A stretch of DNA of 40,608 bases from a phage. The DNA is taken from sequence record OZ370878.1; one strand, 5' to 3'. The notes beneath the pieces are model-generated. The model had not been told where the DNA came from. It searched no databases and saw nothing but the letters and a program-made list of their open reading frames with translations. Positions 15,753 to 17,563 of the stretch are shown here, one piece after another (within the stretch, counting starts at the first letter, position 1; each line of letters begins with the position of its first letter). The position numbers were made by a program, and so were the translations under genes.

Positions 15753-15755
15753 TTA

Positions 15756-16400
15756 TTACTTTTCGTTGGGATCTTTCGAAAGGACAGTTTGTGTCGACAG
15801 GTAATGGTTGTCTGGTAAAAGGACAGGGCCATCGCCAATTGGAGTATTTTGTTGATAATGGTCTGCTAGTTGAACGGAACCATCTTCAACGTTGTGGCGA
15901 ACTGTGAAGTTAGCTTTGATTCCATTCTTTTGTTTGTCTGCCGTGATGTATACATTGTGTGAGTTAAAGTTGTACTCCAGTTTGTGTCCGAGAATGTTTC
16001 CATCTTCTTTAAAATCAGTACCCTTTAACTCGATACGATTAACAAGGGTATCACCTTCAAACTTGACTACAGCACGCGTCTTGTATTTCCCGTCATCTTT
16101 GAAAGATATAGTGCGTTCCTGTACATAACCTTCGGGCATGGCACTCTTGAAAAAGTCATGCCTTTTCATGTGATCCGGATAACGGGAAAAGCATTGAACA
16201 CCATAGGTCAGAGTAGTGACAAGTGTTGGCCATGGAACAGGTAGTTTTCCAGTAGTGCAAATAAATTTAAGGGTGAGTTTTCCGATTGTAGCATCACCTT
16301 CACCCTCTCCTCTGACAGAAAATTTGTGCCCATTAACATCACCATCTAATTCAACAAGAATTGGGACAACTCCAGTGAAAAGTTCTTCGCCTTTGCTCAT
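15756..16400 (-). CDS. GFP1-10: GFP1-10 OPT, the large fragment of split superfolder GFP (beta-strands 1-10), non-T7 engineered ORF
   Basis: 214 aa [50 protein letters not shown]...[14 protein letters not shown]; followed by TAATAA. Confidence 0.97.
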
Positions 16401-16453
16401 ACTAGTGCCACCTATGGTATATCTCCTTCTTAAAGTTAAACAAAATTATTTTA
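16401..16453 (-). promoter_or_regulatory. Engineered translation initiation region for GFP1-10: duplicated gene-10 leader with AAGGAG Shine-Dalgarno, spacer, SpeI site
   Basis: Minus-strand sequence AATAATTTTGTTTAACTTTAAGAAGGAGATATACCATAGGTGGCACTAGT ATG. Confidence 0.85.
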
Positions 16454-17563
16454 TTATGTAATCCCAGCAGCATTTACGTACTCATGAAGGACCATGTGGT
16501 CACGAGAATTCGGATCCCCGAGCATCACACCTGACTGGAATACGACAGCTCCTGCAGCTTCTGGGCGAAGACCACCGTGGCCCATTGCGTACTTAGCGAT
16601 AATCTGGTCCGCTTGGAAGTTAGCACGGCGAGCGCGCTCCAGAGCCAAGTCACGCAGCTTAACAGTACCTACCGCGGAGCGGTGCATGAACAGGCCGATA
16701 ACGTTGTCCTTAGCAACCTTGACATTACCCTCACCTTTATTGGCAGGGAAGACGTGCTTCTGACCAGTAGTGCCCTCACGAGCGGTACCAGCACCACCAG
16801 CGGTGAGGTGCGGAACTTCTACAACCTCAAAGCCCATAACGTTGCGGATAGAACCCTTCTCAGGGTCAATCAGAGCAGCGTAGTTTGCTGCGTTCGGCAT
16901 CAGTGCTGCCAGAATCGCAGAGTAGCTATCTGGGTCACAGTAGAACACACGGTCAGCAGCCGGAACATAGTTCTTGGTCAGAGCCGCACGAGCCTTAGTC
17001 AGAGCCGCAATAATCTCCTTACCCAGCGCAACTTGGTCGGTAAGTGCGGCCTTGTTCTGAGTGGTCTCAATTACGGTAGCAGTACCTAAGCCCTCGATGT
17101 TCTCATTATATTTGCTTTCCACGTTACACAGACCGGCAATCTCAGCCAGAACCGCACCATCCGCAGCCATCGCCAGAGATTCACCCAACTGAGAGGTATA
17201 CTCAGAGCGAACGTCGTAGTGGTTCATCGCGTCCTCAATATCATAAATCAGAACGTCAGCCGTCAGGAGACCGTCAATGGTGATTACCTTCTCGGTGTGT
17301 TTGATGTCCTTACGTTTATCGTCGAGGTTCTCGCCCGGAGCCAGATACGCTGCCTGAGTGCGACCCAGAACAGGGAACTGAGCGGATTTACCGCTGGAGA
17401 TGGAACGTACCATGTGGCGAGAAGTGGTCACGGAGGTACGAGCGAACGCAGTCAGGACTTCACCGCCAAATACCTTCAAGAACAACGCCAGTTTATCTCC
17501 AGCAGCAACTACACCTTTACCTTGGTTAGTACCCATTTGCTGTCCACCAGTCATGCTAGCCAT
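16454..17563 (-). CDS. 10: T7 major capsid protein gp10 (residues 1-348, read-through form) fused to GFP11 tag
   Basis: 369-aa ORF MASMTGGQQMG...AAGAVVFQSGVMLG-DPNS-RDHMVLHEYVNAAGIT then TAATAA. Confidence 0.97.
   Translation of the reverse strand: MASMTGGQQMGTNQGKGVVAAGDKLALFLKVFGGEVLTAFARTSVTTSRHMVRSISSGKSAQFPVLGRTQAAYLAPGENLDDKRKDIKHTEKVITIDGLLTADVLIYDIEDAMNHYDVRSEYTSQLGESLAMAADGAVLAEIAGLCNVESKYNENIEGLGTATVIETTQNKAALTDQVALGKEIIAALTKARAALTKNYVPAADRVFYCDPDSYSAILAALMPNAANYAALIDPEKGSIRNVMGFEVVEVPHLTAGGAGTAREGTTGQKHVFPANKGEGNVKVAKDNVIGLFMHRSAVGTVKLRDLALERARRANFQADQIIAKYAMGHGGLRPEAAGAVVFQSGVMLGDPNSRDHMVLHEYVNAAGIT
16457..16504 (-). other. GFP11: GFP11 (M3) tag coding segment, 16 codons RDHMVLHEYVNAAGIT
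   Basis: C-terminal 16 aa of the gp10 fusion match the GFP strand-11 complementation peptide. Confidence 0.95.
16505..16516 (-). other. Cloning scar GGATCCGAATTC (BamHI/EcoRI) encoding DPNS linker
   Basis: Adjacent restriction sites directly after gp10 codon 348. Confidence 0.85.

Follow-up and report, generated by a model that had tools for sequence, protein, structure and literature searches.

A complete bacteriophage T7 genome with a split-GFP bicistron at its capsid gene

The DNA analysed here, sequence record OZ370878.1 (40,608 nucleotides, termed the window in its full length), is a complete genome of bacteriophage T7 in reverse orientation, and its unusual segment lies at the 3' end of capsid gene 10, directly before the terminator T-phi. 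At this position, a capsid gene that carries strand 11 of green fluorescent protein (GFP) at its C-terminus is followed by a second ribosome binding site (RBS) and by an open reading frame (ORF) of 214 codons that encodes GFP strands 1-10. We used the sequence of bacteriophage T7 in V01146 as the reference for the backbone, and BLAST comparison with the reverse complement of the window gave an end-to-end alignment at 99.9% identity.

Within this alignment, 755 bp of the window (15760-16514) stand in place of 141 bp of the gene 10B tail (T7 24014-24154). A first-pass annotation, made from the nucleotide sequence, had described about 764 bp without a T7 counterpart, which the reference comparison bears out with these boundaries. 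The annotation had also taken the segment to be foreign to wild-type T7, and no wild-type T7 record containing it was found among 346 matching phage records (collection release of August 2025). None of these records covers the insert, and their maximum query coverage of 66% comes from T7 backbones only. All elements that had been listed, including the two TAA stops and the copied gene 10 leader with its RBS, are present on the minus strand (Table 1).

Table 1. Features of the cassette, followed by changes elsewhere in the genome (window coordinates; CDS, coding sequence; SD, Shine-Dalgarno sequence)
Feature	Position	Strand	Basis or remark
Promoter phi9	18660-18682		Read-through source upstream of cassette
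T7 class III promoter phi10 (TAATACGACTCACTATAGGGAGA)	17621..17643	-	Exact consensus; equals V01146 promoter annotation at 22904
Native gene 10 leader/RBS (AATAATTTTGTTTAACTTTAAGAAGGAGATATAC)	17566..17599	-	Identical to V01146; SD AAGGAG at 17572-17577
Capsid-GFP11 fusion CDS, 369 amino acids	16454..17563	-	ORF; Pfam Gp10A-like, 8e-115; residue comparison with gp10A and gp10B
Recoded codons ~337-348, T7Select-type junction	16518..16553	-	12 differences from V01146, clustered at 16520-16553
BamHI (16512-16517) and EcoRI (16506-16511) sites	16506..16517	-	With the following TCT encode D-P-N-S
GFP11 M3 tag RDHMVLHEYVNAAGIT (GFP beta-strand 11)	16457..16504	-	Exact peptide match
Tandem stops TAA TAA ending the capsid fusion	16451..16456	-	
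Second gene 10 leader/RBS copy	16417..16450	-	34 nt exact; matches 17566-17599; SD at 16423-16428
Spacer CC-ATA-GGT-GGC-ACT-AGT	16401..16417	-	GGTS linker remnant; SpeI at 16401-16406; CCATAG at 16412-16417; ATA at 16413-16415
GFP1-10 OPT CDS, 214 amino acids plus TAA	15756..16400	-	PDB GFP matches; Pfam GFP; diagnostic residues
Second TAA after GFP1-10	15753-15755	-	
T-phi terminator	15705..15752	-	Stem-loop 15710-15745; wild-type, unchanged from CTAGCATAACCCC onward
Hybrid promoter CAATACGACTCACTATAGGAGAAC	34601..34624	-	75-bp deletion fusing phi1.1A and phi1.1B via a shared 17-bp core; outside cassette
gp17 codon 541 (S541R)	3669..3671	-	AGT to AGA
Gene 17, synonymous change at S543	3663		TCA to TCT
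Gene 12 codon 784 (gp12 E784)	12723		As in V01146
Private non-synonymous changes in gp0.3, gp0.7, gp1, gp8, gp9, gp12, gp15 and gp16, in this order	39359, 37552, 35994, 19545, 18141, 13488, 11506, 6596		

The product of the 214-codon ORF matches GFP chains of the Protein Data Bank (PDB) with E values of about 1e-142 to 1e-257, so that chance resemblance is not an issue, and its residues 1-214 (or 2-214) pair with residues 1-214 of chains of about 238 amino acids. The protein contains a TYG chromophore and ends in DPNEK before its stop codon, strand 11 being absent. We compared its residues with the 16 substitutions listed for GFP1-10 OPT (PMC5871787). All nine folding-reporter or superfolder substitutions are present (S30R, F64L, S65T, F99S, Y145F, M153T, V163A, I171V and A206V), as are all seven that are specific to GFP1-10 OPT (N39I, T105K, E111V, I128T, K166T, I167V and S205T). 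This full set of diagnostic substitutions, together with the PDB alignment, upholds the earlier identification of the ORF, which on the basis of its sequence encodes GFP1-10 OPT, comprising strands 1-10. The complementary strand is found at the end of the capsid fusion, whose last 16 residues are exactly RDHMVLHEYVNAAGIT, a string found in 47 papers under the name of M3 (GFP11) peptide and already recognized as such in the first-pass annotation.

The capsid portion of the fusion follows gp10A over residues 1-342 and then the gp10B frame over residues 343-348 (QSGVML), after which come G-DPNS and the tag. This 369-residue fusion is the sole capsid gene in the genome. The BamHI and EcoRI sites had been described as a scar encoding DPNS; both sites and all four residues are indeed there, but they form part of a T7Select fusion junction that also includes a recoded frameshift site. 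The junction is identical base for base to that of the T7Select-like record MZ318361 (GCAGGAGCTGTCGTATTCCAGTCAGGTGTGATGCTCGGGGATCCGAATTC), and the identity runs through GGGGATCCGAATTC. With its silent changes and its fixed 10B frame, the junction lacks the natural -1 frameshift site, and therefore only a single capsid form is made. Because no wild-type gene 10 is left in addition, every capsid subunit should carry the tag. The rationale of T7Select display is that a capsid holds 415 copies of gp10, whose C-terminus is exposed on the surface.

In such display, the 348-residue 10B carries proteins fused to its C-terminus (PMC3888415); the window correspondingly has a foreign peptide on the gp10B C-terminus, after residue 348, and has lost the frameshift site. 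The shortened genome and the full BamHI-to-XhoI cloning site of a T7Select vector are absent. The cloning site stops at EcoRI, and wild-type T7 sequence precedes T-phi.

No further T7 promoter was found between phi10 and T-phi, and T-phi itself is the only strong terminator-like hairpin. With a single promoter and a single terminator, the two ORFs make up one bicistron, which belongs to the late transcript of phi10 and is also reached by phi9 read-through; the first-pass annotation had likewise assigned both GFP fragments to this transcript. The 34-nt leader is thus present as a direct repeat that flanks the entire capsid gene. Gene 10 would be lost if the two leader copies recombined, a lethal event, and the repeat should therefore be stable under selection. 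GFP1-10 has no flanking repeats, which leaves no easy route to its loss.

The end of the second leader deserves separate description. It reads GAGATATACC-ATA-GGT-GGC-ACT-AGT-ATG, in which the ATA is in frame with the GFP ATG located 15 nt downstream. The portion GAGATATACCATGG we take to be a pET NcoI-type leader, which presumably would continue into a CCATGG start where the window has CCATAG. Because ATA replaces ATG, the canonical SD is 22 nt from the usable GFP1-10 ATG. An SD-like AGGTGG is positioned 7 nt upstream of this ATG, with a calculated anti-SD duplex energy of -7.5 kcal/mol versus -8.8 kcal/mol for the canonical SD. The possibility that the ATA allele provides a better secondary SD was ruled out, since the duplex energy is the same for ATA and ATG (-7.5 kcal/mol). 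Searches of PLSDB plasmids and complete E. coli genomes with the GFP1-10 cassette and its leader returned only other gfp alleles, at no more than 97.7% identity, and a literature search with a hypothetical N-terminal extension returned no paper.

Outside the cassette, the T7 backbone is full length save for a deletion of 75 bp near phi1.1. The reverse complement of the window starts at T7 position 39625, passes through a single 160-bp terminal repeat and the left end of the genome, and finishes at T7 position 39914. Positions 1-290 of the window are identical to positions 40319-40608, an exact overlap of the ends that sets the period of the sequence at 40318 bp. The 290-bp end repeat, combined with one copy of the terminal repeat, shows that a genome which is linear and terminally redundant was circularised in long-read assembly, and that the circle is not biological. 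The excess of 541 bp over T7 minus one terminal repeat (39777 bp), which the first-pass annotation had accounted for approximately, balances exactly as +614 for the cassette, -75 for the phi1.1 deletion, +1 for an additional A at T7 1896 and +1 for the recoded junction.

A combination of T7, its capsid, GFP11 and GFP1-10 was encountered in the searched literature only in the work of Levrier et al. ('A synthetic cell phage cycle', Nat Commun 2025; PMC12808745). This article describes a phage named T7-Split-S*, nanopore-sequenced and deposited as OZ370880, in which gfp11 is fused to gene 10B and gfp1-10 is placed downstream 'under a ribosome binding site' on a T7 wild-type (WT) backbone. It reports fluorescent capsids and infected compartments for this design, and names S541R as the RdLPS (LPS, lipopolysaccharide) tail-fibre mutation. 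The window presents the same arrangement, gene 10B-gfp11 and then RBS-gfp1-10 on a T7 WT backbone. Moreover, S541R was sought in the window as a prediction from T7-Split-S* and was found in gp17, indicating an RdLPS-specific tail fibre of the kind whose rough-LPS host range has been described previously (PMC10933291, PMC12808745). The same gene, on the minus strand, carries the synonymous S543 change.

Additional variants connect the window to the phages produced by PHEIGES, a cell-free genome assembly method. Over the 3 kb of the tail-fibre region, the window shows 100% identity with the PHEIGES rfaC clones PP384396, PP384400, PP384407 and PP384408. Genome-wide, four variants are common to the window and PP384400, namely +A1896, gp9 N227S, gp17 S541R and the synonymous change at S543. 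At gp12 residue 784 the window has the glutamate of V01146, whereas PP384400 has glycine. According to the PHEIGES paper, G784E is carried by T7-vWT and by T7-rfaD-1, in the latter together with S541R, and the stocks of the laboratory are therefore polymorphic at the site.

On the strength of the published design, S541R and these lineage variants, we consider it very probable that the window is the genome of T7-Split-S* (Levrier, Lindner, Noireaux and co-workers; OZ370880), built by PHEIGES, or that of a very close sibling. The cassette itself, a synthetic construct that has been published before, is no natural novelty. It combines standard elements, namely a T7Select junction, the split GFP of Waldo and a leader of pET/T7 type, with assembly by PHEIGES.

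Several observations weigh against this identification or against a simple account of the cassette. The index of public assemblies that was searched has no record of the exact fusion protein. The legend to Fig. 2E of PMC12808745 places GFP11 at the 'N-terminus', whereas the tag in the window is C-terminal, after residue 348. Yet the same legend names the gene '10B-gfp11', in agreement with a C-terminal fusion, and 'N-terminus' is most likely a slip of wording. The main text of the article makes no mention of the CCATAG change or of the 75-bp phi1.1 deletion, nor of eight non-synonymous single-nucleotide polymorphisms (SNPs) that are private to the window. Nothing is added on the design by the bioRxiv version. 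Finally, the distance of 22 nt between the canonical SD and the usable ATG means that the second cistron may be expressed less strongly than the duplicated RBS, taken at face value, would imply.

Three other origins for the segment were weighed against that of the published phage. Another laboratory could have made a split-GFP T7 display phage independently, for example by adding GFP1-10 to a T7Select415 clone with GFP11. The junction is indeed the commercial T7Select junction, and many display phages carry their peptide behind residue 348 of 10B (PMC3888415). However, the backbone is full-length T7 instead of the approximately 37 kb typified by the T7Select-like MZ318361 (36942 bp), the T7Select multiple cloning site is absent past EcoRI, and a base in the phi10 leader at which MZ318361 deviates from wild type is wild type here. 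When the PHEIGES-lineage markers, S541R and the solitary literature precedent are also considered, an independent phage of this type is improbable.

Even less credible is an assembly chimera or vector contamination, a scenario in which reads from a GFP vector were wrongly attached to T7 sequence and the cassette exists in no real phage. The circular-style artefact at the ends of this long-read assembly lends the idea some plausibility, but both junctions are precise and functional, with an in-frame tag joined through restriction sites, tandem stops, a duplicated RBS and a clean return to wild type at T-phi. Furthermore, the insert does not interrupt the gene 10B tail but takes the place of 141 bp of it, and a matching design has been published with phenotype data. 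As for the idea that a T7-like phage picked up a GFP-like gene in nature, no point favours it. The 16 laboratory-evolved substitutions and the truncation at residue 214 are those of GFP1-10 OPT, and the ORF has cloning sites, a leader of the pET type and a synthetic tag on its flanks, so this origin is refuted by the sequence.

The operation of the cassette can be read as follows. Late in infection, T7 RNA polymerase produces one bicistronic mRNA from phi10, and by read-through from phi9, to T-phi. The first cistron yields the sole capsid protein, consisting of gp10 residues 1-348 with a C-terminal GDPNS-GFP11 extension, and the logic of T7Select display suggests that the tag would be exposed on the outside of all of the approximately 415 capsid subunits. 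The second cistron, behind the duplicated gene 10 RBS, provides soluble, non-fluorescent GFP1-10 OPT. Binding of this fragment to the displayed strand 11 would close the barrel and permit chromophore maturation, resulting in green procapsids, virions and infected compartments. The article on T7-Split-S* reports this outcome from experiment, the fluorescence of the split system depending on complementation because neither fragment is fluorescent by itself. The S541R tail fibre retargets the phage to deep-rough (Rd/Re) LPS. The bicistron, the sole capsid-GFP11 gene, the GFP1-10 OPT cistron and the retargeted tail fibre are all shown by the sequence.

The genome also contains changes that are not evidently part of the design. 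The 75-bp deletion corresponds to T7 about 5849-5923, a segment retained in all T7 records among the best matches listed, and it may have occurred when the repeated promoters mis-annealed during exonuclease-based assembly or through recombination during growth. Relative to both T7 and PP384400, the eight private non-synonymous changes are gp0.3 A58V, gp0.7 R295W, gp1 (T7 RNA polymerase) M431V, portal gp8 C249Y, scaffold gp9 I147T, gp12 L529P, gp15 A29S and gp16 G909S. There are five private synonymous changes as well, and nearly all private changes are transitions. A signature of selection among these SNPs was considered and rejected, since 8 non-synonymous versus 5 synonymous changes, mostly transitions, are what neutral errors of the polymerase chain reaction (PCR) and of propagation would be expected to leave.

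We regard as unlikely the proposal that some of the changes among the ATA start, the phi1.1A/B fusion and the non-synonymous changes in gp8, gp9, gp12, gp15 and gp16 are adaptive and not PCR or assembly noise. If the proposal were true, propagation would have favoured such changes for lightening the load that the tags on all 415 subunits and their decoration with a 24-kDa protein impose, and a reduced synthesis of GFP1-10 would be one example.

The window is thus a synthetic laboratory genome, and its unusual segment needs no natural explanation. As a record, the sequence documents how a published fluorescent-capsid T7 was built, with a C-terminal fusion of the T7Select type and a second cistron that has only an RBS. 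Users of the phage may wish to note the ATA at the first start position of this cistron, the 75-bp promoter deletion and the eight private amino-acid changes.

The cassette can be compared with several known systems. The self-complementing split GFP made of GFP1-10 OPT and GFP11 M3, which goes back to Cabantous, Terwilliger and Waldo in 2005, shares with the window the same 16 substitutions, the truncation at 214 and the exact 16-residue tag. In the window, however, a single late transcript of the phage encodes both halves in cis, and the tag is borne not by a soluble test protein but by an icosahedral capsid with many copies of it. T7Select415-type display (Novagen) has the recoded junction, the fusion after gp10B residue 348, the BamHI and EcoRI sites, and the tag on all capsid subunits with wild-type gene 10 absent, features that recur here, although the T7Select backbone and the rest of the cloning site do not, and the sequence downstream of the insert is that of wild-type T7 (AATAACTAGCATAACCCC) and not the T7Select version. 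T7-Split-S* agrees with the window in its gp10B-GFP11 fusion, downstream RBS-GFP1-10, PHEIGES-assembled wild-type backbone, S541R mutation and long-read assembly, and differs in the 'N-terminus' of its legend and in the silence of its main text on CCATAG, the 75-bp deletion and the eight SNPs. A final parallel is T7_mCg10o (PP384393), a PHEIGES reporter phage with mCherry after gene 10, which has the same laboratory lineage and method and the same site of insertion, between gene 10 and T-phi. In that phage mCherry has its own added T7 promoter, whereas the window provides its downstream cistron with nothing more than an RBS and uses a split reporter that is joined to the capsid.

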